DNA from: Candidatus Nomurabacteria bacterium
GTDB taxonomy: Bacteria > Patescibacteriota > Minisyncoccia > Phycocordibacterales > UBA918
DNA length: 64,000 bases
Assembly (NCBI GenBank): GCA_023898585.1
Contig: CP060229.1
Span: forward strand, 139,388 to 203,387
Direction: 5' to 3'
Of the stretch, positions 8,405-33,382 are shown piece by piece (the stretch's first letter is position 1; each line of letters opens with the position of its first letter). The notes under the pieces are model-generated. The model had not been told where the DNA came from. It saw nothing but the letters and a program-made list of their open reading frames with translations, and searched no databases. Both the position numbers and the translations under genes were made by a program.

Positions 8405-8995
8405 AAATGTCCATTGAGGCTAAAAAGGGGCTCTCCAAGGGATGGTGATCGGTTATTCACGTACGCATCACTATTATCACCATAAACAACCTCAAAAGGA
8501 TTGGCACACCAAGCAACTGATTGAGGCTGTGTTACGTGAGCACCCAGGCTATGGCCACAAGCGCTTGGCCACACACCTCAAGATCAACAAGAAACGAGTG
8601 CTGAGAGTTATGAAGTTGTTTGGTATTAAACCATACCGGAGAACTACTCCTAAAGTGTTTAAAAGCCTAAAGGTAGTGTGTTTCCCAACTATTTAATGAG
8701 TGAGGAACCACGAGGGCCAGGTGATATATATGCCTCAGACTTCACCTATCTTAAATATCGAGGAAAGTGGTTGTATGTGGCTACAGTACTCGATACGTAC
8801 ACTAGAGATAGTTGGTGTATCGATATTGACAACACATCAGACACAGCTCGTCATTAACGCTTTGGCTTCAGCAGTGCTCCATCGAGCTCCTCCACGGATT
8901 ATTCATTCCGATCAAGGGAGTGAGTACTGCTCAAAAGACTACACTGCCTTAACCCAAAAGCTTGGTATCAAACAGTCCATGAGTGCCCCCCGGTC
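8295..8995 (+). mobile_element. Decayed internal fragment of the IS3-family element (3' part of orfA plus a frameshifted, truncated orfB). Both ends are missing.
   Basis: The encoded WLGTKATGTVSLLEHNKLKKENEQLKQIIGDLTIKMSIEAKKGLSKGW and MVIGYSRTHHYYHHKQPQKDWHTKQ... are near-identical to the intact copy at 17424-18549. The orfB region has several frame breaks and stops after ...SMSAP. Confidence 0.75.
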
Positions 8996-11406: not shown

Positions 11407-11731
11407 ATACTACAATGGATTTCCGTGTGTGGCCAGTGGTTTGGGAATACTTATCAGTTTAGACAAATGGTGTAAGAGATAATCAATCTGTATGCGCCTT
11501 GCCTCACTTTTTTCAGTTTTTTTAATTTTATTTCACCTTTCTAACCCACAACCAAGTATATCAGTTACGCTCGAGACACTATCAACCCAGAATTTGAAAC
11601 TAGCTAAAACGGTCAAGCAAGGCTTGACCGACCACGGTTCTAACTCGAGACCGCCCGCAAATCATCTTCTTCACAAAACTGGCAATCAATTTGTAACCAA
11701 ACAAACCAAAACTCCCATCATAAGACTGTGA

Positions 11732-12500: not shown

Positions 12501-13547
12501 TTATGAAGAAGATGGGATAGTCACAGTCATCTTTGTACCCTTTCCAATTTCGCTCACCAAATCTATTTCTGCACCAATTTTATCAGCAATATTCCGAACA
12601 ATAGATAGTCCTAGACCAGCTCCATTTTCTGAGGTCTGCTTACGTGACGTGTCTAGTTTTGTAAAACGTGAAAAAACAGTTTCCAACTTGTCATTTGGAA
12701 TACCAATACCGGTATCCTCAACAACCAATTCTACTGTGTTTCCGGTTTGTTTAAGACCAACCCGGATATTGCCATTTTTCTTATTATAATCAACCGCATT
12801 TTTGAGGATGTTTTGTAGCAACTGAATGTAACTGTCTGCATCAATCATCAATTTGACATCCTTGTCCATGTCAGAAGAGATGACGATATTTTTTTGATCA
12901 GCGTAGTAGAAAAATCGTTCTAGTTCTTTTTGAGTTATGGTTGTTAGATTTTGAATCGTTACATTATCATCGATCGTAAGTGAATCAGAGCGTAATAGTT
13001 GCAGGAGTTGGTTAGCTAGCCTAGTTAGTCTTTCGGACTCTTCTTTGACGTCGAGAATGAATTCTTGATATTTTTTTGTTTTTTGTTCTTTGTGCAACAT
13101 AGTGCAGGCGCCGAGTTGTATAACCGAAAGAGGAGTCCTTAATTCGTGTGCCACGTCTCCCAGAAACTGTTGTTGTCTGTCTTGGTTCTCTTTGATTGGT
13201 CTTAGAGTACGTTTAGAAAACTGGTAAGAGGTCATACTTACCAATAACAGAATGATAATATCAACAAGAGCAATGACGCTCGATAAATGTTCTCTGAATT
13301 CATAAGTATTCCATTTTTCATGCAGTAAATAATCTTCTTCCACTTCATCCTCAAAAAATTCAAAGGTTGGTTTGGTCCCACTTTCTTCGGCAGGACTAAA
13401 TAAGACCAGTATAGAAACACTACTGATTAAAAGAATTATTGCTGTACTTAATACATAGTAAAATGTCAGCTTTCGTGTCGCTTTTTCAAATTCGTTAGTT
13501 TTGGAAAGCGTAGCCGACACCGCGAATGGTTTTAATATATTTATCAT
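12501..13547 (-). CDS. Sensor histidine kinase (HisKA plus HATPase_c, two TM helices)
   Basis: H-box VAHELRTPLSVIQ, N-box LKNAVDYNKKNGNIRV, G-boxes EDTGIGIP and GAGLGLSIVRNIADKIG. Confidence 0.8.
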   Translation of the reverse strand: MINILKPFAVSATLSKTNEFEKATRKLTFYYVLSTAIILLISSVSILVLFSPAEESGTKPTFEFFEDEVEEDYLLHEKWNTYEFREHLSSVIALVDIIILLLVSMTSYQFSKRTLRPIKENQDRQQQFLGDVAHELRTPLSVIQLGACTMLHKEQKTKKYQEFILDVKEESERLTRLANQLLQLLRSDSLTIDDNVTIQNLTTITQKELERFFYYADQKNIVISSDMDKDVKLMIDADSYIQLLQNILKNAVDYNKKNGNIRVGLKQTGNTVELVVEDTGIGIPNDKLETVFSRFTKLDTSRKQTSENGAGLGLSIVRNIADKIGAEIDLVSEIGKGTKMTVTIPSSS

Positions 13548-16600: not shown

Positions 16601-17423
16601 TATTTTGTATTTTTCGGGCTAAAGAAACAATCTAGGACCTAAAACACCAAAACCACGGCTCTGTATAGCCGTGGTTTTATGTTTATCTAGCTCGCATGGT
16701 TAATAAACGAGTTAGATGTCCCTATTGTTTATCATTACAAACTAAAAAGAAAGGTAAACAAAGTGGTAGACAGCGCTATGGTTGCAACGATTGTGGTAAA
16801 CGATTTCAAACTAAGCAGAGAGAAACAGGGTTGGTTAATAAATTATGGGAAGAGTATACACATCAAAAACAAACGCTGACCGAACTGTCTAACAAATACA
16901 AGAAGAGTCACGTCTGGGTACGTACACGATTAGATCAAGTTAAAACCTCAATACCAAACATACAACCACAAAAGACGGTTATCGTAGCTGACACCACCTT
17001 CTGGGGACGACACTACGGTGTCTGTGTCTTTAGATCATGGAACTTACGAAGAAACATTTGGTGGGGTGAGGTTGAGACTGAGAAAGTGTCTCACTATCAC
17101 TACGCTCGTAAATTATTAGAAGAACGTGGTTGGACATTCATCGCTGCCGTAGTGGACGGAAGGCGTGGATTAGCAACGGTTTTTAAGGATATACCAGTAC
17201 AAATCTGTCAGTTTCATCAACTGAAGACCGTGACCAAGTACTTAACTAGAAAGCCAAAGACTGAAGCTGGTAAAGAACTGCGAAAACTGGCTTTAACACT
17301 CACGAAAACAAACGAAGAAGACTTTGCTAAAGCTCTAACTATTTGGGAGGAGAAGTATCATAATTTCTATACTGAGAAAACGTACGTTACCTGTACTAAC
17401 CATTGGTACTACACACACAAGAA
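16601..17423 (+). mobile_element. Zinc-ribbon DDE IS element (IS1595/IS1-like) copy A, 3'-truncated by the nested IS3 insertion
   Basis: Identical to copy B (42570-43610) from the left end through ...TCTNHWYYTHKN. It then abuts the IS3 terminal IR at 17424. Confidence 0.7.
16696..17423 (+). pseudogene. Transposase of IS copy A (truncated after about 242 codons)
   Basis: N-terminal CPYC...CNDCGKRF zinc ribbon. The sequence diverges from copy B at residue about 243, where IS3 begins. Confidence 0.7.
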
Positions 17424-17440
17424 TGGAAGGTACCCCAAAA

Positions 17441-18217
17441 TTAAGACACCTTTTGCAAGTCTTTTAATAATACCTCATGTTGGTCTCTAAACAACTGTGG
17501 TGGTTGCTTTAGAGCGGAGTGGATACGTTTTTGATTGTAATAATTAATAGTCTGATAAATATTAGCCACTAACTCACCGAGAGTATCAAACCGGTTTGGG
17601 TCACCTAAGTCCAATTTGAACCCTTTATAGAAACTCTCTTGGTAACCATTCTCCCAGGGACAACCGGGGGCACTCATGGATTGCTTGATACCAAGTGATT
17701 GTACTAGGTTGGTATAGTCTTGACTGGTGTACTCACTCCCTTGATCAGAGTGAATGATACGAGGTGGTGGGCGGTGAAGCACGGCACTCGCTAAAGCATT
17801 TAATACCAGTTGAGTATTATGGGTGGTTAAGACTGACACTCCAACTATCTCTCTGGTATAGACATCTAGTACCGTTGCTACGTATAACCATCTATCTTGA
17901 TACTTAAGATGAGTGAAATCGGAAACGTAAATGTCACCAGGTCCAACTGGAGATTCACTCATCAGGTAGTTGGGAAACACACTACCTTTAGGCTTTCTAT
18001 AGACTTTTTTGGCTGTTCTTCGATAAGGTTTGATGTCAAAGAGTTTCATCACCCGTAGCACCTTCTTCTTGTTCATCTTGAGGTGTTGCGATAACCGTTT
18101 GTGTCCGTACCCTGGATGCTCACGAAGAGCCATCTCAATCTGTTGTTTGGTGTGCCAATCCTTTTGAGGTTGTTTATGGTGATAATAGTGATGCGTACGT
18201 GAATAACCGATCACCAT
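17441..18217 (-). CDS. IS3-family transposase OrfB (DDE/rve integrase core)
   Basis: 258 aa with DDE region ...YVSDFTHL...IIHSDQGSEYTS...WENGYQESFYKGFK. Confidence 0.8.
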   Translation of the reverse strand: MVIGYSRTHHYYHHKQPQKDWHTKQQIEMALREHPGYGHKRLSQHLKMNKKKVLRVMKLFDIKPYRRTAKKVYRKPKGSVFPNYLMSESPVGPGDIYVSDFTHLKYQDRWLYVATVLDVYTREIVGVSVLTTHNTQLVLNALASAVLHRPPPRIIHSDQGSEYTSQDYTNLVQSLGIKQSMSAPGCPWENGYQESFYKGFKLDLGDPNRFDTLGELVANIYQTINYYNQKRIHSALKQPPQLFRDQHEVLLKDLQKVS

Positions 18218-18486
18218 CCCTTGGAGAGCCCCTTTTTAGCCTCAATGGACATTTTTATGGTGAGGTCACCGATGATTTGTTTGAGTTGTTCGTTTTCTTT
18301 CTTCACCTTGTTGTGTTCAAGAAGACTCACGGTACCTGTGGCTTTGGTGCCGAGCCAATCATAGATGGTTCGACTACTGATACCGTATTGCTTAGCCGTA
18401 TCACTGACACTCAAGCCTTCGTGTTTGATTTTATTGATAACTTCGGCTTTTATCTCAGCTGAGATCTTGTATCCTTTCTTGGACAT
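18211..18486 (-). CDS. IS3-family transposase OrfA (HTH)
   Basis: 91 aa: MSKKGYKISAEIKAEVINKIKHEGLSVSDTAKQYGISSRTIYDW..., a helix-turn-helix. Confidence 0.8.
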   Translation of the reverse strand: MSKKGYKISAEIKAEVINKIKHEGLSVSDTAKQYGISSRTIYDWLGTKATGTVSLLEHNKVKKENEQLKQIIGDLTIKMSIEAKKGLSKGW

Positions 18487-18639
18487 ATTGCTTGTATTGT
18501 TTAAGTGATAATACTTGCAAAAGTTGTCTTAAGAAAGGGGTACCTTTCAACAAGCCGCTTTTTTGTCGGACTCAGAGGATTATCTAAAGATAAAACAGTT
18601 TATCCAAAAAATCGGAACGAACCCCACGGTTCGTGACAA

Positions 18640-18968
18640 ATCCGCCCGCTTCGCCGCGCCCGCCCCGTCCGAATTTGTCTCGAAACGACGGCGTTTTTTG
18701 CTTTCCTCGCCCCGCCGCGTTCGGTCGTGTAGCGACCTCACGGAACGGGAAGTTTCAATTTGCGGTGCTTTTTGAACGAAGTTCGAACGCTCTACGAACA
18801 AAATCCGCAAGAGTTTGACTAATAACCCGCTCAGCCGCGCCCTCGGCTCCACTCCGTTCCGCCGACCGAAACAAACTCTTTTCTTTTCCGCTTTTAACAA
18901 GAAAAAATGGGGGGCGAAAAAAATGAAAAAGCAAAGAAAAGAGATTTGTTTCGGGAGTTCGCGAGGTG
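18640..18968. repeat. GC-rich repeat arm R1 (inverted relative to R2 at 22080-22440)
   Basis: 18750-18968 is about 97% identical to the reverse complement of 22080-22300. Further upstream the similarity weakens. No convincing ORF. Confidence 0.6.
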
Positions 18969-19349
18969 CTGCAAAGTAGCTCACTAAACCAGTTTATTGC
19001 TTACGCAATACCGTTCGCTACTTCTCCGCACCTCGCTCACTCGGGCGCCACCTTCAAGCGTTTGTGGTAATGTAACGTCCGCTCACACCTGCAACACCTC
19101 GCACGCTTTGCTCGCATAAGATGCTCGCGTGGGCTGCTCTGGTGTTGCGGGTGTTCGCTTAGTGGCTTCGATTTGAGTTCGTGGTGCCCACGTACATGCA
19201 TGTTTGACTATGTTTGCTCTTGGTCTGTTATCGCTGACGTCTGTATATTTTTACGAATACCTCGACCAAATCGAAACGTCTCTGTCGGAATAGGATTCTT
19301 CGGCTTTGCGTGGTACGCAAACAAAAATCATCACCGACGTTGTATTCGT

Positions 19350-20198
19350 TTAACCAGCTATGCGACACTGTGTGGCCACAGTACAATATCGCACTGATCT
19401 GAGAAAATTCATCCATCTCCATGAATGTTGCAGGCACATTGTATTCGCCTCCGATTGCTTTCTTGGGAATTGTAGGAACAGGTTTGTAAAACCACCCTGT
19501 AACTTTTCTTTGCCGGGAACTTTCACAAGTACGTCAGGCCCTTGCCCAAACACGGCTCGTTTGAAAAGCATATTCGGATCAGCAAAATGTTGTATCGCGC
19601 TACCGTTAATTGCGACGATTAAGCAGTCCTTGTCCTTGACACCGCTGTGCTCTGAGTCTTTCAGATATTGTTTGAACTTCTCATACTTTGTCCCTATCGC
19701 GTTGGTTATTCTGAGTGCGCGCGGACGATGCGTATCTTCAATATTTCCGCCAAAGGAATAGATGACACCTGACTCCATATGTGGATGTGGTTCTACGGGG
19801 TCTACTGTTCCCCAGATCACAAGTAATCGCTTCAATCCAAATATTTTTGCGCTCGGTAGTGTTATACAAAAATCTGGTCCATAATCCCAAGCCTTTTCTT
19901 TGAGTATAAAGCCCTTGTCGAGAAGCGTCGCTGCAAGATGAAATTCCCAAACACGAGCTTGATGCTCTTGTTCTAGCTTGAAGCGATCAAGAAAATCACT
20001 ATCAAGATATTTATGCACCTTGGGCCAGCGATCCTCATACCATTTTCGTAGATCTTCCCAGTACACGGCAGTCTGTACGTAGGTGTGCGAGTATTCAGCG
20101 TGCTGTTGAAATGCCGCATCAAGCTCTTCCTGGCTTGTGACCGGATCAGTCACAATATCTTTCGGAAACAAGGGCGATAGTTGTTTTAACTGTTTCAT
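19350..20198 (-). CDS. Hypothetical 282-aa protein (island cargo)
   Basis: A long ORF of intermediate GC. It contains a YGPDFCI segment, possibly a PD-(D/E)xK-like PD motif, but I cannot assign a family. Confidence 0.35.
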   Translation of the reverse strand: MKQLKQLSPLFPKDIVTDPVTSQEELDAAFQQHAEYSHTYVQTAVYWEDLRKWYEDRWPKVHKYLDSDFLDRFKLEQEHQARVWEFHLAATLLDKGFILKEKAWDYGPDFCITLPSAKIFGLKRLLVIWGTVDPVEPHPHMESGVIYSFGGNIEDTHRPRALRITNAIGTKYEKFKQYLKDSEHSGVKDKDCLIVAINGSAIQHFADPNMLFKRAVFGQGPDVLVKVPGKEKLQGGFTNLFLQFPRKQSEANTMCLQHSWRWMNFLRSVRYCTVATQCRIAG

Positions 20199-20620
20199 AT
20201 GCGCATTGTATCAATTTGTGTGACATTAGTCCTTATTTGAAGCCGTGTAGCAAAATCTTGGGCTTGACATATTGACAATATTGTGTATACTAGCATTAGT
20301 TTTCGGCATTTGTATGCCGAAATTTTTGAACCTTAACATAGAGGAGGAATTACGATTGAAAACGTAAGGCTAAAAGGCTTCGTTATTGGCTCTGACAGAG
20401 TCGGTGACGATACGGTTTGGAAGGTCCGAGTCAATGACAAGACCAATAAGCTTCATTGGAAAAAGTTTGAAGTTGCTTCCGTTCACGGAGGTATTCAGCT
20501 TGCCAAGGGGCTTGAGGTTGAGTTTTTGCTCGGCAACTTCCTGAAAGACGGACATCCTGTCCAAAGGCCGTGGATGTCGCGCTTCTGTGACTCCACACAA
20601 CAGACACAAAGAGGTAACTC

Positions 20621-22023
20621 ATGTTAAATATTCCCTTCTTGTCGGTCGGACTCATTCTGGTCGGCATCCTGCTCGTTTTGTCATCATTCTGGCGATCCTC
20701 TTCCGCAAGGTCGTGAGCACCAATATGGTGCATATCGTCCAGAGTAGCCATAAGACCACACCCTACGGCACCGGCAACAACAGTGGCAACGTCTATTACC
20801 GTTGGCCGAGCTGGATTCCGAGGTTTGGGGTCACTGTCATCGAACTTCCTGTGTCCAACTTCGATCGCAGCCTCAAGGGCTACGAAGCGTATGACAAGGA
20901 CCGGGTACCGTTCATGGTCGACGTTACGGCGTTCTTCCGGATTGCCGATACGGCGCGTGCTGCACAGCGTGTAGCGAGTATGGGAGACCTCGACGAGCAA
21001 TTGGACCTGATCGTCCAAGGCGCCGTCCGCAAGGTGCTCGCCTCTGACGTGATCGACAAGATCATGCTCGAGCGCGCACAGTTTGGCGACCTCTTCACTA
21101 ACGAGGTTACCGAACAACTCGCCGAGTGGGGTGTGGAACCAGTCAAGGCAATGGAGCTCATGGACATCCGTGACAGCCACGACAGCCACGTAATTTCCAA
21201 CATCATGGCGAAGAAGAAGTCTCACATCGAGATGGAAAGCCGGAAGGAAGTCGCGTCGAACAAACGTGAGGCCGAAATGGCGGAGATAACCGCGCAACGT
21301 GAAGTCGACATCCAACGCCAGCAGGCCGAACAGGCTGTCGGTGAACGGACGGCCGAGAAGGAAAAGGTCGTCGGCATCGCGCAGCAGCAGGCGTCGCAGG
21401 AGGTGAAGACCGAAGAAGCCAACACCAAAGCCAAGGAAATGGCAGTCGTCAAAGTCGGTCAGGTGCAACAAGCCGAGATCGATCGCGACGCGGCCATTGT
21501 CGCTGCTGACCAGCAGCGCGAGGTTGCTATCCGTGAAGCGGATGGTAAGCTCGAAGCTGCCAAGCGTGAAGCCGAGGGTGTGCGTGTGAACGGTGTCGCT
21601 AAAGGTGAGGCCGAACAGGCAATCCTCATGGCGCCGGTCAATGCCCAGATCGCTCTGGCGGAGAAGATCGCTTCGTTGCCCGAGTACCAGGAGTACCTGC
21701 GGGCGATCGAGGCGATCGGAGCCTACCGGACGGTCGGCAGCGAGCAGGCGAAAGCACTGCAGTCGGCCGACGTCAAGGTCATCTCCAACGCCGGTAAGCC
21801 TGGCGAAGGGATGACCAACGTCATGGACCTATTCACTTCCAAGGGTGGCACCACCTGGCCTCGGCGGTCGAAGCGTTCGCACAGAGCCCGCTCGGCAAGT
21901 CCATCATGGGCAAGCTGGCCAACTCGACTTCAGACAAGGTGGTGGACACTCCGGAGAAGCCGCAACCAACTGAAGAAGAGCAGACGCAGCTCGACGAAGA
22001 GAAGTAAGCCTTCTGTCCTCTAA
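20621..22023 (+). pseudogene. Flotillin/SPFH (band-7, YqiK-like) protein. High-GC foreign gene with a -1 frame break after the N-terminal TM helix.
   Basis: The ATG at 20621 gives MLNIPFLSVGLILVGILLVL (TM helix) and hits a stop after 31 codons. The body resumes in another frame at ...ILAILFRKVVSTNMVHIV... through the SPFH domain and a long EA-rich coiled coil (REAEMAEITAQREVDIQRQQAEQA...). The break falls at a T4 run near 20680. Confidence 0.7.
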
Positions 22024-22079
22024 CCTAAACCAAGTCCCCGAGTACTCGCAAGAGTGCTCAGGGCTTCTTTATATGAGCT

Positions 22080-22440
22080 AGCCAATTTTGCAGCACCTCG
22101 CGAACTCCCGAAACAAATCTCTTTTCTTTGCTTTTTCATTTTTCGCCCCCCATTTTTTCTTGTTAAAAGCGGAAAAGAAAAGAGTTTGTTTCGGTCGGCG
22201 AAACGGAGTGGAGCCGAGGGCGCAACTGAGCGGGTTATTAGTCAAACTCTTGCGGATTTTGTTCGTAGAGCGTTCGAACTTCGTTCAAAAGCACCGCACT
22301 TTAGGACAATCAACGGAAACAGAACCCGAGGGCCGCCGCCGCGCAAGCGGCGGCGCCGTGCCATGTGGCGGCAAAGCAAAGGGCGAACGGCGCGGCACAG
22401 AGAGCGTGCGCACGGAAATGGACGGGTTCGTCGTGCTTGT
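22080..22440. repeat. GC-rich repeat arm R2
   Basis: Reverse complement of R1. Its inner part (22300-22440) is also repeated, again inverted, at 24040-24180 inside the recombinase 3' end. Confidence 0.6.
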
Positions 22441-22602
22441 TGTGAATATTTAAGGTTCACAACCACGCACGCGTTTTGTTGCACAAAACAACCGATCTTT
22501 TGTCTGCTCTATTTGAGCGGCGTGAAGCGATTTTGAGTATTTGGATTGTCCGAAAATTTTGCTCTGTTTATTCTGTGTATGATAGAATGTGAGTGTACCC
22601 AA

Positions 22603-22679
22603 CCAAATCGAGAAGGTCTTTTTAATGGCCGTCTTTGGGCAATTCGAGGTCTTCTCGGGTTGGGTACACCAAGGACGGC
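22603..22679. promoter_or_regulatory. Imperfect inverted repeat immediately upstream of the serine recombinase gene. Candidate recombination (att/res-like) site or operator.
   Basis: GTGTACCCAACCAAATCGAGAAGGTC ... GAGGTCTTCTCGGGTTGGGTACAC flank a 26-bp AT-rich core. Confidence 0.3.
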
Positions 22680-22687
22680 TATTATAG

Positions 22688-24212
22688 TTTCCATATGAAA
22701 GATACTCCGCAAAATTTTATCTCTACGCTCGCAAGTCCACGGACGAAGCGCAGAGGCAAGTGCTAAGCATAGAGGCGCAGCTCCATGAATTGAGAGAGTT
22801 TGCACGAAAAGAGAATTTGCATATCGTCCGTGAGTTTGTTGAGAGCAAGACGGCGAAAGAACCAGGACGAGAAGTTTTCAATGAGATGCTTGCGAGCGTC
22901 GAGAACGGCGATGTTGAAGGTATCGTAGCGTGGCACGCGGATAGGTTGGCGCGCAATAGTGTAGATGGCGGCAAGATTATTTATCTGCTGGATGTTGGTA
23001 AGTTGAAGTACTTGAAGTTTCCAACCCTGTGGTTTGAAAATACACCGCAAGGTAAGTTCATGCTCAACATCGCCTTCGGCCAATCCAAATACTACGTTGA
23101 TAACCTTTCGGAGAACATCAGGAGGGTATTCGCCAGAAGCTCCGCAATGGCGTATGGCCAGGATATGCACCTATCGGATATTTGAATGACAAAACAAATC
23201 GCACTATTGTCCCCGATACAGACAAGGCAACCCTCATCCGCAAAGCATTTGAGCTTTATGCAACTGGCGAATACCCCTTATTGAAACTCCGAAAGGTTAT
23301 CAACGAATCTGGCTTGGTTGGGAAGCGGGATAAACTCCTTTCAATTTCAAACTATCAGTACCTACTCAAGAATCCAATCTACTACGGAGCTATCAGATAT
23401 GGTGGTGAACTCTATGACGGAGTCCATGAACCGATTATCACTAAGAAACTTTTGATGCGGTACAGAGCATCATGGGAAGCAAGTCGCGCACTACTCGCGC
23501 ACCCAAACTGAAGCCGTACAGTTACCGCGGCGTGTTCCGTTGTGGCGAGTGTGATTGCATGATAACCACCGAGACTCAGAAAGGACACAACTACCTTCGC
23601 TGCACCAAACGCCGCGGAGTATGTACCCAACCCTATGTGCGCGAGGAAGCAATAGCCGAGCAAGTACGAGAAGAAGTCCAAAAAGTTTCTTTGCCGTCCG
23701 CGTGGGTGGATGCGTGCGTGCAAATTTTAGAAAAAGAACGCACGCACCACCAACACGCGGAACGGTCGTCCGTTCAAAAACTCGAAAGTGAGATAACAAC
23801 GATCGAGAAGAAACTCGACGCTTTGCTTGATCTCCAACTTGATGGTTCCATTACACACACCGAGTACACAAACAAAAAGCAAGTGCTCCTAAATCGCAAG
23901 ACCGACCTCAAAGAGCAAATCGCCGTTTTTGAGCGAACGAGTGATAATCGGTTCGAACCTTTGACCCGCTTCCTTAAATCGCTCAACCAAGCCGGAAAAA
24001 TCACTTCACGAGGAAATCTCGAAGAAAATCGAGATTTCCTCAAAAAGATCGGTTCGAACCCGTCCATTTCCGCGCGCACGCTGTGCGTGCCGCGCCGTTC
24101 GCCCTTTGCTTTGGCCGCCACATGGCACGCCGCCGCTTGCGCGGCGGCGGCCTCGGGTTCTGTTTCCGTTGATTGTCCTAAAGTGCGGAGAGTATGGGAT
24201 TTGAACCCATGA
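22688..24212 (+). pseudogene. Large serine recombinase (resolvase catalytic domain, recombinase domain, zinc ribbon and coiled coil) with at least two homopolymer frameshifts and no canonical start codon
   Basis: Catalytic YLYARKSTDEAQRQVLSIEAQ (Ser nucleophile), then GIRQKLRNGVWPGYAPIGYLNDKTNRTIV in the -1 frame after a G3 run near 23125, then ...IITKKL/SIMGSKSRTTRAPKLKPYSYRGVFRCGECDCMITTE (zinc ribbon) after a T4 run near 23440. Confidence 0.75.
24040..24180. repeat. GC-rich repeat R3 (third, partial copy of the R2 inner segment, R1 orientation)
   Basis: The reverse complement of 24040-24180 matches 22300-22440 (ggacaatcaacggaaacagaacccgag...gcaaagggcgaacggcgcggcac...). Confidence 0.55.
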
Positions 24213-24272
24213 AGGGGGTTAGCCCTTACCTCGTTAGCAGTGAGGCGCTTTCGACCACTCAGCCAACTCTCC
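24186..24272 (-). tRNA. tRNA-Ser (anticodon GCU), class II with long variable arm
   Basis: Reverse-strand sequence is GGAGAGTTGGCTGAGTGGTCGAAAGCGCCTCACTGCTAACGAGGTAAGGGCTAACCCCCTTCATGGGTTCAAATCCCATACTCTCCG. Acceptor stem of 7 bp, T-loop TTCAAAT, anticodon loop CTGCTAA. Confidence 0.85.
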
Positions 24273-24356
24273 GTCTTTCTTCGAGTTGGCTTCGGGTCGA
24301 ACGAGTTCGTCCTCCTCCTTTCAGTCGGTTGAAAAGCAAATCAATTTTGCTTTTCA

Positions 24357-24374
24357 ACCACTCAGCCAACTCTC
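24357..24374 (-). repeat. 18-nt duplicate of the 5' end of tRNA-Ser (GAGAGTTGGCTGAGTGGT), followed on the same strand by a perfect 14-bp hairpin
   Basis: Direct repeat of 24255-24272. The adjacent hairpin is GGTTGAAAAGCAAA-ATTGA-TTTGCTTTTCAACC (24324-24356). Confidence 0.5.
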
Positions 24375-24590
24375 TAATTCAAATTCATTTACAACGCTCA
24401 GATTTTTGCGAGCGTTTGACTCTGTTTCCTCCTTCGCTACTGTGCCAGCTAGGATAACATAGTTTCTGTGAGGAAAAAAGATTTTGATATCATTTACCGA
24501 CACTCAAAAGTACAAGCTTTTTATTCTGCAACTATACCCTATTTCTGTTAGAGTAGTGAAGTTCAATATCGGTAATCAACCCGAATTGAA

Positions 24591-25409
24591 TCACCCGAGA
24601 GCAACATCGAGAGTCATCATCAAAGCAAAACCGATCATCGCTCCCATTGTAGCAAAATCAGCCATACCCGGTCCTCCACGTTGTGCTTCCGGTACAAGCT
24701 CTTCCACCACCACAAAGAGCATCGCTCCAGCGGCAAAAGAGAGAGCGTAAGGAAGAACGGGCGTAAACACAACCACCAGAAAGGCTCCGGCAACGGCCGA
24801 AATCGGTTCTACAGCACCGGAGAGTTGTCCATAAGTGAAAGCTTTGAGGCGAGAAAACCCTTCACGCCGGAGAGGAACCGAAACCGCTGCTCCTTCCGGA
24901 AAATTTTGAATCCCGATACCTATAGCCAATGCTATAGCGACAGCGATAGACGCTCCCTCGACCCCGGCCGCTGCAGCTCCAAAAGCCACACCAACAGCTA
25001 AGCCTTCCGGTATGTTATGTAAGGTAATGGCTGATATAAGTAAAATACTTCTGTGCCAAGAAGTTTTGGGACCTTCAGCATCAGATTCAGGGAAACCCAA
25101 ATGAAGATGTGGGATCATTTTATCCATCAACCACAAAGTCATGGCTCCGAGTAAAAAACCAATAAGAGGTGGTATCCAGCGAGGTAAATCTCCACCTTCG
25201 GAGAGCTCAATGGCTGGAGAAAGTAACGACCAGAAACTGGCTGCGATCATCACGCCGGCTGCAAAAGCCAACATGCCATTAAGAATTCTTTTGTTTATTT
25301 CTTTAAAGAAAATCACGGCTGAGGCACCAAGCGCTGTCACCCCCCAAGTAAAACACCCAGCCAGGAAAGCCTGGGTCACAGGACCCTGTGTAAGAAACCA
25401 TTCAGTCAT
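24591..25409 (-). CDS. zupT: ZIP-family zinc/metal transporter (ZupT-like)
   Basis: 272 aa, 8 TM helices, signature [16 protein letters not shown] and HNFPEG-like second motif [10 protein letters not shown]. Confidence 0.8.
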
Positions 25410-25545
25410 TTTTATTTTGATTTAATTACTAAGCGTGAGACCAAAGGAGAAAAAACTTCACAGGTCAAGGAGTTGCTCAACTTTCATATATTCAAACACA
25501 TGTTGGAGGACACAGCAACACCATGTGGGTTGATTATAGACTCCT

Positions 25546-26709
25546 TTATTTTTCAGATTTTATAGTGCTCGCGACCGCTTTAACCAAATTCGGGGTCATG
25601 ATCGGCGGAATAACATTATCTGCTGTGGGTTTTTTAATCAATCCGGCAATCTTGATAGCTGCTTCTAATTTCATGTCATCAGTAATTGCTCTTACTCCCC
25701 TATCTAGAGCACCCCTAAATACACCCGGAAAAGCCAGCGCGTTGTTGATTTGATTAGGAAAATCAGAACGACCGGTTGCTACCACCGTTGCTCCGGCGCG
25801 AATGGCATCTTTCGGCATAATCTCAGGAATCGGGTTGGCTAATGCAAATACTATCGGTTGATGCGACATATTTTCGATATGAGCTTGTGCAATTGTGCCA
25901 GGACCGGAAACCCCGATAATCACGTCAGCTCCATCAACCACTCGCATAACATCACCGGATAATTTATGTGGATTGGTTATCGCAGACAACTCCTGTTTGT
26001 ACCCACCAAGTCCGGGACGACCCTCGTAAATGGCACCTTTTGAATCAACCACGATAATTTCACTGATACCGGCCTTAATAAGCAAGAGTGTAATAGCGCG
26101 CCCGGCGGCTCCAGCGCCAACTACCACCACCCGCAAACCGGTAAACTTCTTTTCGACTACTTTGGTAGCGTTTATCAGCCCGGCCAGTACCACAATAGCA
26201 GTGCCGTGCTGATCGTCGTGCATGACTGGAATATCTAATTCCGCTTTAAGTCTCTCTTCAATTTCAAAACACTTCGGCGCAGAGATATCTTCCAAATTGA
26301 TTCCACCAAAACCAGGAGCGATGGCTTTCACGACTCTAATTATTTCTTCTGGTTCTTGTGTATCTAACACAATCGGTATCGCGTCTATGTCGGCCATTTC
26401 TTTAAAAATTGCAGCCTTACCTTCCATCACCGGCAAAGCCGCTATCGGACCGATGTTACCAAGACCAAGAACCGCCGAACCATCGCTCGCCACTGCCACC
26501 GTATTTCTTTTCATCGTATAGCTACGTGCTTCAGATGGTTTTTTGGCCAGATGCGAAGAAACAGCTCCTACTCCCGGAGTGTACATGATACTCCAATCAG
26601 TCTTGGTCTTAAGACTATGTTTGGCCGTTACTTCTATCTTCCCTTTGAGTTTTTTGTGAAGTTGCAGAGCTAGTTTGTTATAGTCTTTTTTAGCTGGCAT
26701 GGATGACAA
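25546..26709 (-). CDS. maeB: Malic enzyme (NAD(P)-dependent malate dehydrogenase, decarboxylating), short bacterial type
   Basis: 387 aa: TPGVG...VVSDGSAVLGLGNIG...GINLEDI...VVVGAGAAGRAI...FALANPIPE. Confidence 0.85.
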   Translation of the reverse strand: MSSMPAKKDYNKLALQLHKKLKGKIEVTAKHSLKTKTDWSIMYTPGVGAVSSHLAKKPSEARSYTMKRNTVAVASDGSAVLGLGNIGPIAALPVMEGKAAIFKEMADIDAIPIVLDTQEPEEIIRVVKAIAPGFGGINLEDISAPKCFEIEERLKAELDIPVMHDDQHGTAIVVLAGLINATKVVEKKFTGLRVVVVGAGAAGRAITLLLIKAGISEIIVVDSKGAIYEGRPGLGGYKQELSAITNPHKLSGDVMRVVDGADVIIGVSGPGTIAQAHIENMSHQPIVFALANPIPEIMPKDAIRAGATVVATGRSDFPNQINNALAFPGVFRGALDRGVRAITDDMKLEAAIKIAGLIKKPTADNVIPPIMTPNLVKAVASTIKSEK

Positions 26710-27114
26710 TTTTTATATTAAAATTATGAACACGACTGCACTAGTATACTCTACTGATTTTAAGGGGCAAATCTCCTTCAGAAGTTTGCCGACCAGAATC
26801 CAGACAATAAAAAACCCCGCTGTTAGCTGGCGGGGCCACGACACACGGCCGTGAAATGACTAAAATTAAATGATTGTGGACCACAAGATGATCCTCATCA
26901 TACCAGTAATCCCGTTAGCGTAGGTACTGGCCACCAACTTATACCATATAAAGATACATATTGTAAGTTGTTGCCGGCGGAACTGCTATTAAAAATTTAG
27001 AGGCTTTAAATAAAAAACCCATCACAAAGATGGGATTTACTGCGGGGCGCTTGCGCGCCCCGCTACAATGCCTAGTCACACACTACGTGACTGGCAACTC
27101 ATGCGGCCGGAAGG

Positions 27115-27291
27115 TTACTCGTTCTGCTGGTGCCAGGACATCGCGGTATCAGCAGCCGAAAGGCCCGTTGCGCCGGTGTTCATCACATGTGCCGGGTTCG
27201 CGCGGGTATCGTTGTCATGGCCCAAAGATCCGATATCGTTGTTGGCAGCCACGGAGGTGGACTCGGAATGGCGGTACTGTCGATTTTTCAT
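27115..27291 (-). CDS. Small hydrophilic hypothetical protein (58 aa, S/T/N/A/D-rich), GC-rich
   Basis: AGGAG RBS 7 nt upstream of the ATG, and a strong rho-independent terminator downstream (gcggggcgcgcaagcgccccgcag, then a T-run). There are antisense ORFs on the opposite strand, so coding status is uncertain. Confidence 0.3.
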   Translation of the reverse strand: MKNRQYRHSESTSVAANNDIGSLGHDNDTRANPAHVMNTGATGLSAADTAMSWHQQNE

Positions 27292-27478
27292 AGAGAGTTT
27301 CTCCTCTTGATTGTTGATTGATGTACTCTCAGTGATCACATGTCTTAAGAAGACAACACTGATTACTTCTCTTTGTATCATCTGCAAAAAAAATAGCAAC
27401 CACTTTGTCCACCAAACCTACATTGGAAGATTTTGTCAAAACCCCTAACCCTCAATTATCCTGATACAATGAATATCT

Positions 27479-29791
27479 ATGAAAACCGTTAGAATGAATC
27501 TTTCAGATAGTCTTTCTGCACATTTCCGTATCGACACCGCTCACGCCAAAGCTCTTAAACGACTCGGTATTGAGACAGTCTCTGATCTTCTTTACCACCT
27601 ACCGGCTCGCTATGAGGATATTTCTGATGTGCAGTCAGTCGGCGGGCTGAAAAAAGGTCAGGAAGCAGTGGTGTACGGACAACTATCCGGACTCAACACC
27701 CGTAAAGCTTGGAAGAGCAAGAGACCGATCGCTGAGGGTTACATCGAAGACGGTTCAGCCAAAATGAAGATCATGTGGTTCAACCAGCCTTACATTGCCA
27801 AGATGTACACTGACGGCATGTATGTAAAGCTAGCGGGCAAAGTAGCCGGCAGTGGAGGTAAGTTGTATCTGTCGAATCCTGAAATGGAACCACTCGACTC
27901 CCTGCCGATCGATCGTCATGACAGTATATTCGCGGGAACAGAACAGACAGACGATACTCTTTATCCTATCTACCGCGAAACCAAGGGCGTTACCAGCAAG
28001 TGGTTTTATCACACTGTTTTGAAATGTTTTGAACAACACGTTCTCGACACCCTGATTGATCCGATTCCTTCAGAGATTCTCAGGAAATACAATCTGCCGG
28101 AATTGAAAACCGCGCTCATATGGATTCATTCACCCAGGAAGGCTAAAGACGCCGAATCTGCTCGAAAACGCTTTGCTTTTGAGGAGGTGTTCTATATTCA
28201 AGTGCAAAAAGCACAGGAACGGGCGGCGGTGAGCGTAGCGCAGACTTATACCGTCAAAACCAGTAAAAAACACTTGTCCGAATTCACCAAGCGTTTCCCT
28301 TTCAAGCTCACCGCCGCCCAGAATTCTGCCATCGACTCTATCCTCTCCGACTTCTCTGGCAACCACGCCATGTCACGCCTCTTAGAGGGAGATGTGGGAA
28401 GTGGCAAGACCGCCGTCGCTGCAACGACTGCCTACGCTGTCGCCACTTCTCGCCCACCAGAGGGATTAAAAAATGTTAGCGCTGATAATTTTGAGGACAA
28501 TTCCAGGCGTGGAGAAAGTGACGAGGAAGACGTACAAGAGTACGATGACCGAGGCACAGAGGCTCCACAACGAAGAAGTGTCCCAAAATTATCAGCGCTA
28601 GAATATGGGAATCTGCAGGTTGCCTACATGGCTCCGACTGAGATATTAGCCAAACAACACTTCGAAAGTTTTATTGAATACTTTCAGCATCTTCCGGTCC
28701 AGGTTGGCCTTATTACCGGAAGCGGTTGTATGAAATTTCCTTCCAAAACAGACCCCACCAAACCAACCAAAATTTCCAAAGCGCAGTTACTAAAATGGGT
28801 TAAAAGTGGTGAGATTCCAATTCTGATTGGCACCCACGCGCTTATTTACAAGAGCGTTGAGTTTAAACATCTAGCCTACGTAATTATTGACGAACAACAT
28901 CGCTTTGGCACCAACCAACGCAAACAGCTCGCCAAGAAAGACGCACGAATGCCACACTTACTGTCTATGACAGCTACTCCAATCCCTCGCACTCTTGCGC
29001 TCACAATTTACGGTGATTTAGATATTACTTTGCTCGATGAGATGCCGGCCGGCCGGAAGCCGGTCATCACCAAAATTGTCGGACCTAGCCAGAGCAAAGA
29101 AATGTACGACCATGTAAAAAGCGAACTCGAAGCCGACCGGCAAGCCTACGTCATCTGCCCACGCATTGACGAACCTGACCCCGATCAGGAACGAACTATC
29201 AATATGAAAAGTGTTATCGCTGAAGCCAAGCGACTGAAGAAAGATGTTTTTCAACAATGGAAGATTGAGCCTCTGCACGGCAAGATGACTCCAGCTGAAA
29301 AAGAAAAGATTATGAATGATTTTAATAATCATAAGATAGATATTCTGGTAGCTACCAGCGTGGTTGAAGTGGGGGTAAATGTTCCGAATGCCACCAACAT
29401 TATTATTGAAGGTGCTGAGCGCTTTGGCTTGGCCCAATTGCATCAACTGCGCGGTAGGGTCATTCGCGGCACCCATCAGCCATATTGTTTTGCGGTCACC
29501 GAAAGCAAAAGCGAAAAAACCCGCGACCGCCTCAAGGCGCTCGCGACTGCCAAAAACGGTTTCGAGCTGTCTGAACACGACCTGCAATTCCGAGGCTCCG
29601 GCGAACTCTACGGCGGCAAGCAAAGCGGCCTCTCCGATCTCGGCATGGAGGCCATCCGCAATCTTAAACTAGTCGAAGCTGCCCGCAATGAAGCCAAGCA
29701 CTTGGTCGAGAATCACCCCGACTTTGAGAAAGGCTTTCCTCTCATTGCCAAGAAAGTCGCTCGATTGGGAGAGGTGCTACATATGGAGTAG
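27479..29791 (+). CDS. recG: ATP-dependent DNA helicase RecG
   Basis: 770 aa. N-terminal wedge/OB region, then GDVGSGKT, DEQHRFG, SMTATPIPRTLAL and the RecG-specific C-terminal helicase motifs (LHGKM...ILVATSVVEVGVNVPNAT...QLRGRV). Confidence 0.9.
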   Translation: MKTVRMNLSDSLSAHFRIDTAHAKALKRLGIETVSDLLYHLPARYEDISDVQSVGGLKKGQEAVVYGQLSGLNTRKAWKSKRPIAEGYIEDGSAKMKIMWFNQPYIAKMYTDGMYVKLAGKVAGSGGKLYLSNPEMEPLDSLPIDRHDSIFAGTEQTDDTLYPIYRETKGVTSKWFYHTVLKCFEQHVLDTLIDPIPSEILRKYNLPELKTALIWIHSPRKAKDAESARKRFAFEEVFYIQVQKAQERAAVSVAQTYTVKTSKKHLSEFTKRFPFKLTAAQNSAIDSILSDFSGNHAMSRLLEGDVGSGKTAVAATTAYAVATSRPPEGLKNVSADNFEDNSRRGESDEEDVQEYDDRGTEAPQRRSVPKLSALEYGNLQVAYMAPTEILAKQHFESFIEYFQHLPVQVGLITGSGCMKFPSKTDPTKPTKISKAQLLKWVKSGEIPILIGTHALIYKSVEFKHLAYVIIDEQHRFGTNQRKQLAKKDARMPHLLSMTATPIPRTLALTIYGDLDITLLDEMPAGRKPVITKIVGPSQSKEMYDHVKSELEADRQAYVICPRIDEPDPDQERTINMKSVIAEAKRLKKDVFQQWKIEPLHGKMTPAEKEKIMNDFNNHKIDILVATSVVEVGVNVPNATNIIIEGAERFGLAQLHQLRGRVIRGTHQPYCFAVTESKSEKTRDRLKALATAKNGFELSEHDLQFRGSGELYGGKQSGLSDLGMEAIRNLKLVEAARNEAKHLVENHPDFEKGFPLIAKKVARLGEVLHME

Positions 29792-30081
29792 TTAAATCAA
29801 GTTGTTTTCATTTAAAAATTGAAACCACTTTTGATAACATTCTTTAGCTGACTCATAACAATCATACTTTTCTCCTTGGTATACGAAATCCCATCTATAT
29901 TGATTGCGCACCAGGCAAGCGTTTTTTCTGACACGCCGACAAAACCTACATTTCAATCTCTCCTTCCTTTGTTAGGGAGACAAAAACTGTCGGAATGTTA
30001 ATTTTTGTGTGTTGGTGTTTAATAGAACTTTCCGGATCACTCGATCCTTTCTTGGTACTTTTTTCAAAGTGTTTATGCCCA

Positions 30082-30351
30082 TTAGCAAGTTCGGCACAAA
30101 TGACAAAGCACTTTTTGTTTAGTTAGAGTATCAACTTTATCTTCATATTCACCGGAATTGTAATATTTTACCCAGTCTTTCAGATGATGGATGTTTAAAT
30201 ATGAAATGTAAACTATACCAAGCAAATCTTTATGCTCAAGATTTTTGTAGTAACCATGCTTAACAAAGAGTAATTTTTTATACCATCTTTGAACTCGTTC
30301 CCATTGCTCGAGATAATCTTTTCCTTTAAACTCTGCGTACAGACTATCCAT
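30082..30351 (-). CDS. Hypothetical small protein (89 aa)
   Basis: An ORF co-directional with and 9 nt downstream of the EEP-family gene. It ends ...LCHLCRTC. Confidence 0.3.
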   Translation of the reverse strand: MDSLYAEFKGKDYLEQWERVQRWYKKLLFVKHGYYKNLEHKDLLGIVYISYLNIHHLKDWVKYYNSGEYEDKVDTLTKQKVLCHLCRTC

Positions 30352-30359
30352 AATAGATT

Positions 30360-31100
30360 CTAAATCTCAAGCAACAACGGTGAGTGGTCGGACACTTCAT
30401 CGGGTAAAACTTGAAAATCTTTTACTTCAATTCCCTGAGAAATAAAAACGTAATCAGCAAAACCGATCGGTTTATCGTACAAAGATGTCCTGGTCGAAGT
30501 GATTTCATGCTCTGTTATCAAGTTCTTGAGTCCGAGGTCATTTTCTATCATCTGTAAACTTTGTGTGCCGGGCAATAGATTAAAGTCACCTCCCAGAACG
30601 ATATCGTGAGGAATATTTTTTATAAAATCAATAATTCTTTTCGACTGTTTGATTCTATCGTCAGAATCTGATTTACCTTCGCCATTCCATAGTCCATGAA
30701 AATTTATCATTGTTAGTGGTTTTTGATCATGAAGAATAGTCGCGTACTGAATATTCCTCCCCACTGTCGTGGCGTCTCGACCAACCATAGACTCTCTATG
30801 GTTATGTACAAAAATATCACCAATCTCATTAACCTGGATGTCTTTTTTAATAAACATAGCCAAACCCCACTCGTCAAAAACAGCTGGCGCGAAATACCCG
30901 CGATGTAGATCGAGAACATTATCAATCGCACTAAATATTTCTTTTTCTTCATCAGGCTCCCAACAAGTGACACTCGTGGCCTGATGCATTACTTCTTGGA
31001 GTAAAAATACTTCTGTTTCTCTGAGTTTTTCAAGAAAAACGAGTAGATCTTTACTCATTCTGCCTCCCCATATATTCAACACTACGATTTTCATATCCAT
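30360..31100 (-). CDS. Endonuclease/exonuclease/phosphatase (EEP, DNase I-like) family protein
   Basis: 246 aa: N-terminal VVLNIWGG, internal GDFN, C-terminal SDHSPLLLEI. Confidence 0.7.
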   Translation of the reverse strand: MDMKIVVLNIWGGRMSKDLLVFLEKLRETEVFLLQEVMHQATSVTCWEPDEEKEIFSAIDNVLDLHRGYFAPAVFDEWGLAMFIKKDIQVNEIGDIFVHNHRESMVGRDATTVGRNIQYATILHDQKPLTMINFHGLWNGEGKSDSDDRIKQSKRIIDFIKNIPHDIVLGGDFNLLPGTQSLQMIENDLGLKNLITEHEITSTRTSLYDKPIGFADYVFISQGIEVKDFQVLPDEVSDHSPLLLEI

Positions 31101-31615
31101 TACTCTTCATCACCATTCTTTTTCCGGCGGTGCCACCAATAAGCGAGAACAATGAATATAACAGTAATTATATACAGCCTGTAATCTTGGTAACTGGAAA
31201 CGGTTATTGAATCCAAGGGTCCGACGAGATCCTCGGGTGGGCCGGAAGCTTCGCTTCCGGCCCCGCCTTCCGCCATTAGATCACTAAGCTCAACCGTTTT
31301 CTTCCTTTCTAATTGGCCGGACCCTTCTCCTGACACTCTTGACACCCCTCCCTCCGAATTTAAAGTGAGAAAAGTGTCGAACTCTCCATTTCCACTTATA
31401 TCGTGAGCTTCCAACACCGCTTCATTGTTCTGATACAAAAACATAACCACTCCGTGCTCAGAAGCCACCAACTCACCACCGGAGTAATACAAAACCCCCG
31501 ATTCAACCCGCTTACTACTATCGTACAAAACGGTTTGCTCTCCAACAGTCAATTCGCCCGCCTCTGCAAAAGCCAGCATTGGAAGTAGTAGTAGTGTGAG
31601 TGTGATTTTTTTCAT
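31100..31615 (-). CDS. Hypothetical secreted protein with a signal peptide and a C-terminal TM anchor
   Basis: MKKITLTLLLLPMLAFA... and a C-terminal YRLYIITVIFIVLAYWWHRRKK. Confidence 0.4.
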   Translation of the reverse strand: MKKITLTLLLLPMLAFAEAGELTVGEQTVLYDSSKRVESGVLYYSGGELVASEHGVVMFLYQNNEAVLEAHDISGNGEFDTFLTLNSEGGVSRVSGEGSGQLERKKTVELSDLMAEGGAGSEASGPPEDLVGPLDSITVSSYQDYRLYIITVIFIVLAYWWHRRKKNGDEE

Positions 31616-31619
31616 AGAC

Positions 31620-32780: not shown

Positions 32781-33175
32781 AGTAATGAGTATACGCTTAT
32801 CTTGTTACGGCGCAACAAAATAAAAAGACTGCGCCGATACTCCTGACGCAGTCAATAATTTGTAGAGGGGATTAGCCTCTTGAAACAGACCTTCTATCTC
32901 AATAATTCAGAAATATGAATTTGGTAAACAGACTAAACAACAGTCAAAATGAATCTGTTCCTAAGATATGCCCGAAGGCTGATCACCTCCTTTTAGAAAT
33001 TTGGGAGAGAAAGACAGAAGTTGTGTTTTGCTTTAAGCGCATGTTTATTGTACCTCCTATCTATATATAACGGACGGCAAATACCGCCCACTTATGTAAC
33101 ACCTGAAATGATGACAAATGTAAACAGGAAGAACTCTTGTTACTTACATAAAACTAACGAACGATTGTCCAAAGC

Positions 33176-33204
33176 CCTTGATTGCGTTATAGTATCAATC
33201 ACCA
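33176..33204 (+). promoter_or_regulatory. Sigma-70-like promoter for tRNA-Ile
   Basis: TTGATT - 17 nt - TATCAAT (TTGATTgcgttatagtatcaatc), ending about 5 nt before the tRNA 5' end. Confidence 0.35.
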
Positions 33205-33207
33205 AAA

Positions 33208-33280: not shown

Positions 33281-33382
33281 CAAACGAACGCGAACCGATT
33301 TACTTCACTTCATGTGAGGTGTTTTTTGCACTTCAGTTAACAAACACAAATAATCTGAGTAAACTTGGTATAATAACTTGGC

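Follow-up and report, generated by a model that had tools for sequence, protein, structure and literature searches.

A 5.4-kb island probably placed at the 3' end of a tRNA-Ser(GCT) gene by its own large serine recombinase in a Candidatus Nomurabacteria genome

Serine integrases are valued as genome-engineering tools, and the natural targets known to us are almost always protein-coding or intergenic sites. Here we describe an integrative island, designated E2, which carries a large serine recombinase (LSR) gene and ends in the last bases of a tRNA-Ser(GCT) gene. It lies in a stretch of 64,000 nucleotides (hereafter the window; GC content 44%) from the forward strand of contig CP060229.1 (positions 139,388 to 203,387; assembly GCA_023898585.1), whose host sequence of 994,774 bp is annotated as a Candidatus Nomurabacteria metagenome-assembled genome (MAG). 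With the integrases of phiC31, Bxb1 and A118/LI it shares a three-domain enzyme, short attachment (att) sites, a small core and a 5-bp motif shift. The E2 family differs from them in targeting the 3' end of a tRNA gene, in an open reading frame (ORF) that crosses the core and in an extra inverted internal attP, and the E2 element is devoid of phage genes.

Small LSR-driven islands that occupy the 3' end of a conserved gene and leave it functional are represented by SCCmec (CcrAB, rlmH 3' end), and in SCCmec-type systems newer and older elements accumulate in tandem at one site. Similar tandem accumulation is seen here, as the remnant of an older element (E1) next to E2 in the window and in the loci L062, L030 and L013. 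Unlike SCCmec, E2 carries only one recombinase gene, targets a tRNA, has an inverted attP inside the element and brings defence or membrane functions as cargo rather than resistance genes. The tRNA islands of tyrosine integrases (P4-like elements, tycheposons and pipolins) resemble E2 in their tRNA 3' end target, the integrase at the edge, tandem arrays and defence cargo, but the enzyme of E2 is a serine recombinase, and E2 shares no more than a 4-bp core with its target, where theirs is a duplicated tRNA 3' segment of 15-50 bp. In SSV1-type integrases the att core also lies inside the integrase frame and integration alters the product; the SSV1 tyrosine recombinase splits its gene in two, whereas E2 swaps only the last ~8 codons. 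Hin and Gin have their recombinase gene between or beside inverted repeats. Long inverted repeats around or adjoining the recombinase gene and the coexistence of both orientations are features that E2 has in common with Hin/Gin/Cin and the yeast 2-micron FLP system, but those use small invertases with an enhancer, or FLP, and the inversion in E2 has no evident regulatory consequence. The enzyme of E2 is a canonical LSR with known site geometry, and the element differs by its tRNA 3' target, the ORF across the core, tandem stacking and the conserved inverted internal attP. A limited full-text search of the literature found no description of serine integrases at tRNA 3' ends or of an E2-type architecture, and the large LSR survey by Durrant et al. 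makes no mention of tRNA.

It is likely that the interval 18762-24188 is a 5.4-kb integrative island placed in the last bases of tRNA-Ser(GCT) by its own LSR, and that the frame breaks in its genes are homopolymer errors. E2 recurs at 99-100% identity beside five junctions, four of them with tRNA genes and one at a non-tRNA site. The copy in L087 (Nomurabacteria MAG GCA_020632015.1) occupies the non-tRNA site, that in L090 (a JGI contig, Illumina) adjoins tRNA-Ser(TGA), those in L001-L003 (ENA contigs) adjoin a different tRNA-Ser(GCT), and further LSR protein variants have last residues derived from yet another tRNA. The flanks at the opposite, or Y, end are of three kinds (the window; L087; L088, L089 and L091), with the Y-side boundary at the identical position in L087, L088, L089 and L091. 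Homology among the copies always stops after CCTAAAGTGCGG at the LSR end and always begins with GCGGTGCTTTTTGAACG at the other, and since the ends are fixed at both sides the crossover is placed within the shared GCGG. Cargo and both outer boundaries were unchanged in every recovered context. An earlier reading of this region from its letters alone (hereafter the sequence-only reading) had proposed a search for the island in other genomes, and that search recovered it in several contexts at 99-100% identity. A Y-arm scan of JGI metagenome contigs gave no matches in a collection that is incomplete, since the JGI contig L090 carries a Y arm.

Three observations concern L087 and its insertion site. 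An unoccupied intergenic stretch of the window (11565-11659) is 80% similar to the non-tRNA insertion site of L087 and ends in GGTTCTAACTCGAGACCGCCCGC; a T-loop-like motif and a CCGC core are present, with no tRNA or Rfam family called. Within L087, positions 12540-12625 hold a tRNA- or tmRNA-like 3' fragment (GGGTTCGAGTCCCGGAGCCCCCG) exactly where the island meets the host flank in L088, L089 and L091. On the other side of the island, L087 carries a CBASS-like gene pair of SMODS and HORMA proteins (2538-3963).

The ends of E2 belong to two pairs of inverted repeats. The first pair, Y (18761-18975 and 22087-22298), is 215 bp long, 97% identical in the window and 100% identical in the reference copies; in L094, a short-read scaffold of the same strain, Y2 is 100% identical to Y1. 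This pair bears out the GC-rich core of about 220 bp which the sequence-only reading had seen repeated in inverted orientation some 3.1 kb away. That reading had overlooked the second pair (22294-22430 and 24055-24188), which brackets the LSR gene and is 93% identical in the window and 97% in the reference copies. This repeat, X, corresponds to the final 133 nt of the LSR gene (X3 measures 134 nt with the core, and the X2 block 137 bp). In the tRNA arm the T-loop motif (A)TTTGAAC stands 11 nt away from the core, and in the Y arm (G)TTCGAAC stands 16 nt away from it. By a published rule, the attB of a serine integrase has its zinc-ribbon motif 5 bp nearer the crossover than the attP does (PMC3783163). 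On the basis of the 5-bp inward shift in the tRNA arm relative to the Y arm, the junction of the tRNA with X3 is assigned as a putative attL-type site, that of the outside with Y1 as attR-type, and that of Y2 with X2 as a full, inverted attP that lies some 265 bp before the LSR start. The motif spacing thus argues that the GC-rich repeats, which had not been recognised as such before, are attachment-site arms, X being the P' arm and Y the P arm. The outer arm of the left repeat likewise shows the spacing of an attP, and it forms a quasi-palindrome with X. The internal attP may serve as an operator of the LSR or as a second docking site (compare L018 below), or it may be a duplication kept identical by gene conversion.

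Other explanations of the repeats were tried and set aside. Rfam scans, by gathering threshold and by E-value, returned only the tRNA and chance microRNA matches, and Y1 has no folding advantage over shuffled sequence (z = -1.28), so a structured RNA was rejected. Neither ARAGORN nor Rfam found a tRNA remnant in X or Y, and the GGTTCGAACC of X encodes the conserved KIGSN motif. A folded single-strand attP or a hairpin-capped intermediate was rejected because a serine recombinase acting on such a substrate would break the chromosome.

The LSR itself was recognised by its domains across three frames in the window, namely PF00239 (E=4e-15), PF07508 (E=8e-11) and the zinc ribbon PF13408 (E=1.6e-7), and it carries the motif YARKSTDE...SIEAQ, of which S15 and R13 are invariant in a 20-sequence alignment. 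The reconstructed protein is 100% identical to P0001 and P0267 from other assemblies, and P0264 is also intact. The gene stands at the island edge in convergent orientation to the tRNA, and its ORF continues across the att core into the tRNA antisense strand; integration exchanges only the last ~8 codons, and the annotated LSRs of relatives likewise extend into antisense tRNA, ending for example in '...WRRGRDSNPR'. The GCGG core of the plus strand corresponds on the tRNA strand to CC (acceptor positions 71-72), the discriminator G and one base beyond. As an enzyme of its class, the LSR would be predicted to catalyse attP x attB recombination and to require a directionality factor for excision. 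The succession of a large serine recombinase gene and tRNA-Ser(GCT) noticed in the sequence-only reading was borne out by Pfam, ARAGORN and Rfam. A 23-nt copy (22/23) of the tRNA-Ser(GCT) 5' end occurs at 24352-24374, on the strand of the intact tRNA and about 80 nt upstream of it; this copy may be an older rearrangement remnant or a degenerate second tRNA, and L094 matches this range without differences.

The same layout extends over a wide family. A scan of one genome per GTDB species gave 586 related loci, mostly in Patescibacteria and Elusimicrobiota, and IMG/VR gave only 5 matches to the LSR family. The layout counts that follow were taken from the best 80 of the 586 loci. In 61 of 72 evaluable loci the LSR tail directly adjoins a tRNA or tmRNA gene of the opposite strand; at 56% LSR identity or more this is a tRNA-Ser of any anticodon, and in more distant loci it is tRNA-Gln, Glu, Asp, His or Asn, or tmRNA. 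An inverted copy of the LSR tail lies upstream of the gene in 62/80 loci (median length 133 nt, median identity 98.6%), and a distal inverted Y of 150-300 bp, 1.3-7.5 kb away and ending exactly at the core, was present in 15 of the 28 loci with enough upstream sequence. The +5 motif shift between attP and attB was recovered in 29/35 evaluable relatives. Between relatives the homology comprises ~40 bp of Y, then X, the LSR and X, and the cargo is unrelated (as in L016 vs L020, at 95%). Defence genes are abundant in the cargo of relatives and include restriction-modification systems of types I and III, an OLD/Gabija-like ATPase accompanied by a methylase, and HEC-05/GmrSD-like and IetA-like genes. 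A gene of 65-72 aa encoding an XRE/Cro-type helix-turn-helix (HTH) protein, divergent from the LSR, stands by the internal attP in L007, L011, L013, L014, L016, L020, L021, L043, L056, L064 and others, about 270-700 nt outside the left repeat, or at the far cargo end in L037, L062 and L052; no XRE-type gene was found in the E2 island of the window. In L018 (7643-9565) the inverted repeat covers the whole tRNA and two inverted tRNA-Ser(GGA) genes flank the LSR, an arrangement that recombination of the internal attP with a second tRNA gene would be predicted to give. A wider proposition, which we put forward tentatively and at somewhat less than even chances, is that these loci form a family of compact elements in Patescibacteria, Elusimicrobiota and other phyla, with an LSR at a tRNA end, an ORF over the crossover, tandem stacking at an occupied site that still works, and, in every element, a second, full and inverted attP that separates the cargo from the LSR gene and has a real function such as an operator or a docking site for cargo exchange.

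A different partition of the same sequence would make it two adjacent units, an IS-like element (X2-LSR-X3) with 133-bp terminal inverted repeats and a non-autonomous Y-bounded cargo cassette mobilised by the first. The shared ~40 bp of Y, X, LSR and X beside unrelated cargo would then indicate exchange at the Y arms, the LSR unit of L018 stands alone between its two inverted tRNA genes, and several loci have no distal Y within reach. Against this partition, E2 keeps its cargo and outer boundaries in all recovered contexts, and the attP-type spacing of the left repeat together with its quasi-palindromic pairing with X is more in keeping with a single attP than with a pair of element ends. We regard the two-unit arrangement as unlikely.

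Similarly improbable is that the LSR acts as an invertase, with the Y-bounded cargo, and perhaps also the X-bounded LSR segment, forming a programmed switch of the Hin/Gin type. Both orientations of the cargo do occur for E2 and across relatives, the repeats are held at 97-100% identity in highly diverged members, and the recombinase gene lies between one repeat pair and adjoins the other as in Hin/Gin. However, the cargo reads outward and its inversion alters no gene fusion or promoter relation, RecA-type recombination between identical repeats of 215 bp would yield the same products, and LSRs are not known to recombine attP with attR (PMC3783163). The enzyme is also a 506-aa LSR with a zinc ribbon, as opposed to a small recombinase with a C-terminal HTH and an enhancer, and only the repeat geometry is shared. 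The LSR segment was never flipped in 62 loci, for which reason its flipping as an on/off switch was rejected.

The E2 cargo occurs in two arrangements. In isomer A, found in the window, L087 and L090, the flotillin gene lies by the Y2/X2 junction and ORF330, the other cargo gene, by the outer junction; isomer B is represented by L001 (ORF330 by Y/X2) and by L088, L089 and L091 (flotillin by the outer junction). In relatives, 14 loci have the XRE gene at the proximal Y and 3 have it at the distal Y. Both cargo orientations are thus real. As the Y copies are identical, homologous and site-specific recombination give the same product and are indistinguishable here, and since the cargo genes read outward from an internal promoter no regulatory effect of inversion is evident. 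Locating the inversion crossover by Y1/Y2 variants was tried and dropped, as Y1 equals Y2 in the reference and the Y2 variants of the window are probably errors.

The cargo of E2 consists of ORF330 and the flotillin module. The ORF of 282 aa that the sequence-only reading had listed is indeed present, but it is a frame-broken version of a 330-aa protein, ORF330, which is intact in L001, L087 and others (MCB9818385.1). ORF330 has no Pfam family match; against the PD-T7-5 profile of PADLOC it gave E=2.4e-10 over about half of the profile, making it a candidate defence nuclease. The flotillin protein matches PF01145 (Band_7) with E=4e-17, has thousands of homologues of ~450 aa named flotillin or SPFH, and is intact at 462 aa in L087. 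The GC content of its gene is 58.1% against 43.6% for the rest of the window, and within E2 the high GC is limited to the flotillin module of 1.8 kb. A promoter-like site of the sigma-70 type (20264-20291; TTGACA-16-TATACT, 11/12 positions) falls exactly on the left edge of the module, with a hairpin downstream of it at 20301-20322. The module is 87.9% identical in nucleotides and 91% in protein to L004 (GCA_964568345.1), a contig of 59.7% GC with housekeeping genes, whose release factor 1 is nearest to named Patescibacteria (Pacebacteria, Taylorbacteria) at 65-69% identity. This match and the release factor placement point to a high-GC member of the same superphylum as the donor, from which the module was acquired as cargo, and the foreign, high-GC character first proposed for the flotillin gene agrees with its ~88% nucleotide identity to a 60% GC Patescibacteria contig. 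A further contig, L006 (ERZ27309305 k141_385154), encodes at 620-1789 a protein of 389 aa in which ribosomal protein L22 is in frame with the last ~1 kb of the flotillin gene, at 99.8% nucleotide identity. The fusion reflects either chimerism of this short-read contig or a genuine insertion.

All three genes of E2 are broken in the deposited sequence. The breaks that the sequence-only reading had placed exactly at short homopolymers in flotillin and recombinase were confirmed at 20676, 23124 and 23450, and additional ones were found at 22711 (LSR N-terminus), 21851 (flotillin C-terminus) and 19323, 19488, 19810 and 19844 (ORF330). Homopolymer shortening is a known error mode of long reads. The same-strain scaffold L094, which has the same tRNA, ZIP transporter, malic enzyme and RecG genes, encodes an intact LSR; it shows 0 differences from the window over 10.7 kb of right flank (23451-34212), and all 17 differing columns fall within 22139-23450, including six 1-nt deletions in or upstream of the LSR. 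On the left, the window is matched at 100% identity by L095 over 7.7 kb and by L097 over 4.2 kb. The verified flank totals 17.6 kb, and L087, which is identical to the Illumina contig L090, was used as the reference copy of the island. Compared with it E2 has 6 substitutions, 23 deleted and 6 inserted bases in 5.4 kb, and of the homopolymer runs of at least 5 bases 12/32 are shortened within E2 against 0/123 in the verified flank, a run-shortening pattern of the kind described for long-read errors (PMC9262707). The frame breaks are homopolymer consensus errors of the assembly, which was probably a long-read one, and not decay, because decay would bring substitutions and because a strain identical over an 18 kb flank could not gather 35 changes in 5 kb. 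A hybrid-assembly study of activated sludge, with six closed Patescibacteria genomes, is a candidate source of the assembly. The three apparent pseudogenes of this genome are therefore artefacts, and the island is better re-polished and re-annotated as an intact, recently mobile element.

It is accordingly very doubtful that E2 is truly decaying, with real slippage mutations inactivating all three genes. The indels are in the deposited sequence, its own annotation calls fragments (USN92363, 282 aa; USN92367, 217 aa), and the compensating indel pair 19810/19844 could in principle be biological. Yet the short-read scaffold of the same strain has intact genes beside its unchanged flank, the 1.76-kb LSR segment has 0 substitutions beside 6 homopolymer deletions, nearly all the altered runs of the island are shortened, and the genes neighbouring E2 are intact. 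Of the three alternatives that the sequence-only reading had left side by side, only homopolymer errors are supported, and decay after acquisition is not. Most improbable is a chimeric mis-assembly with DNA of another organism: the abrupt GC climb within the island from ~42% to 58-61%, the occurrence of the island in other genomes of the same community and the odd L22-flotillin contig L006 would speak for it, but the LSR-tRNA-ZIP-malic enzyme-RecG junction is reproduced in L094 and the full internal order in L087 and L090, the high GC is limited to the flotillin module inside an element with defined ends, and the left junction type (LSR remnant against Y) recurs in L062 and L030. A chimeric join thus falls away for the right and internal junctions, and for the left one (18.55-18.76 kb) the structural precedents are those of L062 and L030 only.

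The left side of E2 records an older element. In blastx against a database of 120 proteins, 18542-18685 aligns to residues ~431-478 of family LSRs with the motif FIQKIGTNPTVRDK (E=5e-5), so that 18550-18761, in which no second LSR gene had been recognised earlier, is the tail of one. This E1 remnant meets Y1 at a common GCGG core (18761/18762, the X1/Y1 junction). Besides the two loci just named, LSR tails against a foreign Y arm occur in L013, L026 and L054. E2 may have inserted beside the older, related E1 at the tRNA/X junction of the latter, which would yield X1/Y1, and IS256/IS3 activity would then have removed nearly all of E1, leaving 18550-18761.

Several points weigh against an LSR-placed island with error-derived frame breaks. 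No protein variant matching the X3/Y1 circle junction (CCTAAAGTGCGGTGCTTTTTGAACG) was found in the LSR cluster, no empty tRNA-Ser site of this host was recovered, and no candidate recombination directionality factor was identified in E2. The island of L087 sits at a non-tRNA site, reflecting either relaxed specificity or a later rearrangement. To this is added the absence of a flipped LSR segment in 62 loci. The left junction (IS3, E1 remnant, Y1) is present in the window alone, and all short-read contigs reaching the left side end at the IS256 repeat. Lastly, the errors are confined to E2, for which the multi-copy state of the island in the community and its two isomers may be responsible, as both would hamper short-read polishing.

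A clade of enzymes that reads the universal T-loop motif of tRNA would offer many orthogonal integrases with predictable targets, and the attP and attB arms of this clade are directly legible in genome sequences. Such elements seem, in addition, to act as a major carrier of defence genes in the ultra-small bacteria of the candidate phyla radiation (CPR), whose gene exchange is poorly known. The conserved internal attP poses a testable puzzle on the regulation of unidirectional recombinases.

From left to right the region holds an IS256-type insertion sequence (IS; copy A), an IS3 element, the LSR remnant, Y1, ORF330, the flotillin module, Y2, X2, the LSR and tRNA-Ser(GCT), and the coordinates of these features are collected in Table 1.

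Table 1. Features in and around E2, with positions counted in the window
Feature	Position	Strand	Evidence or detail
IS256-family element (Zn-binding variant), copy A, lacking ~220 bp at its 3' end	16611..17425	+	NF048019 profile, identity to copy B
IS3-family element inside copy A	17424..18549	-	orfA 18211-18486, orfB 17441-18217
E1 remnant, last ~70 codons of an older LSR gene including putative P'-type arm X1	18550..18761	+	blastx
Y1, left end of E2, putative P-type att arm and rest of the 215-bp inverted repeat	18762..18975	+	core GCGG 18762-18765
ORF330 (282 aa as read in the window), candidate PD-T7-5-like defence nuclease	19206..20198	-	PADLOC
Flotillin module: promoter-like site, small ORF, SPFH/flotillin gene 20622-22007	20263..22063	+	PF01145
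Y2, inverted copy of Y1, putative P-type arm of internal attP-type site S2	22087..22297	-	core CCGC 22294-22297
X2, inverted non-coding copy of the LSR 3' tail, putative P' arm of S2	22294..22430	-	repeat with X3
LSR gene, 506 aa after restoring three 1-nt homopolymer deletions	22695..24212	+	PF00239, PF07508, PF13408
X3, coding LSR 3' tail, putative P' arm of attL-type site S3	24055..24188	+	core GCGG 24185-24188
tRNA-Ser(GCT), probable integration target, B-type arm	24185..24272	-	ARAGORN; Rfam 58 bits

Copy A matches positions 42575-43389 at 100% identity; these form the initial 815 bp of the intact copy B, which spans 42575 to ~43612 and has a gene of 309 aa at 42660-43589. Copy A scored 222.9 bits against the NCBIfam profile NF048019 (cutoff 150), covering profile positions 2-238 of 304, and its remaining ~220 bp do not resume 3' of the IS3 element. 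The IS3 element has 40-nt terminal inverted repeats (17424-17463 and 18510-18549) and overlapping orfA and orfB frames with HTH and rve domains (NF033516, 209 bits), and identical copies of its transposase occur at other places in the same genome. It has no target-site duplication, the flanking bases being GAATG and ACAAG, which fits an adjacent deletion better than a simple insertion. As IS256 never resumes and IS3 lacks a target duplication, a deletion would have accompanied or followed the IS3 insertion. The nesting of an intact IS3 within a zinc-ribbon IS whose remainder is deleted, as described in the sequence-only reading, is borne out by these coordinates and identities, and its layered order of events holds for the nesting and the deletion.

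Two further traces of these element types were seen in the window. An apparently solo end lies at 54987-55042, where 57 nt match the left end of the IS256-type element at 86%. At 8301-8994 an IS3-related fragment, 78% identical to IS3 17666-18368, stands in place of 2,062 nt held by the short-read contig L095, in which a DUF2339 protein of 746 aa and an MscS channel of 313 aa are intact; the window versions of both are truncated. Finally, positions 33208-33281 encode a tRNA-Ile with the anticodon TAT, which is uncommon in bacteria and also occurs in the related Patescibacteria locus L023.

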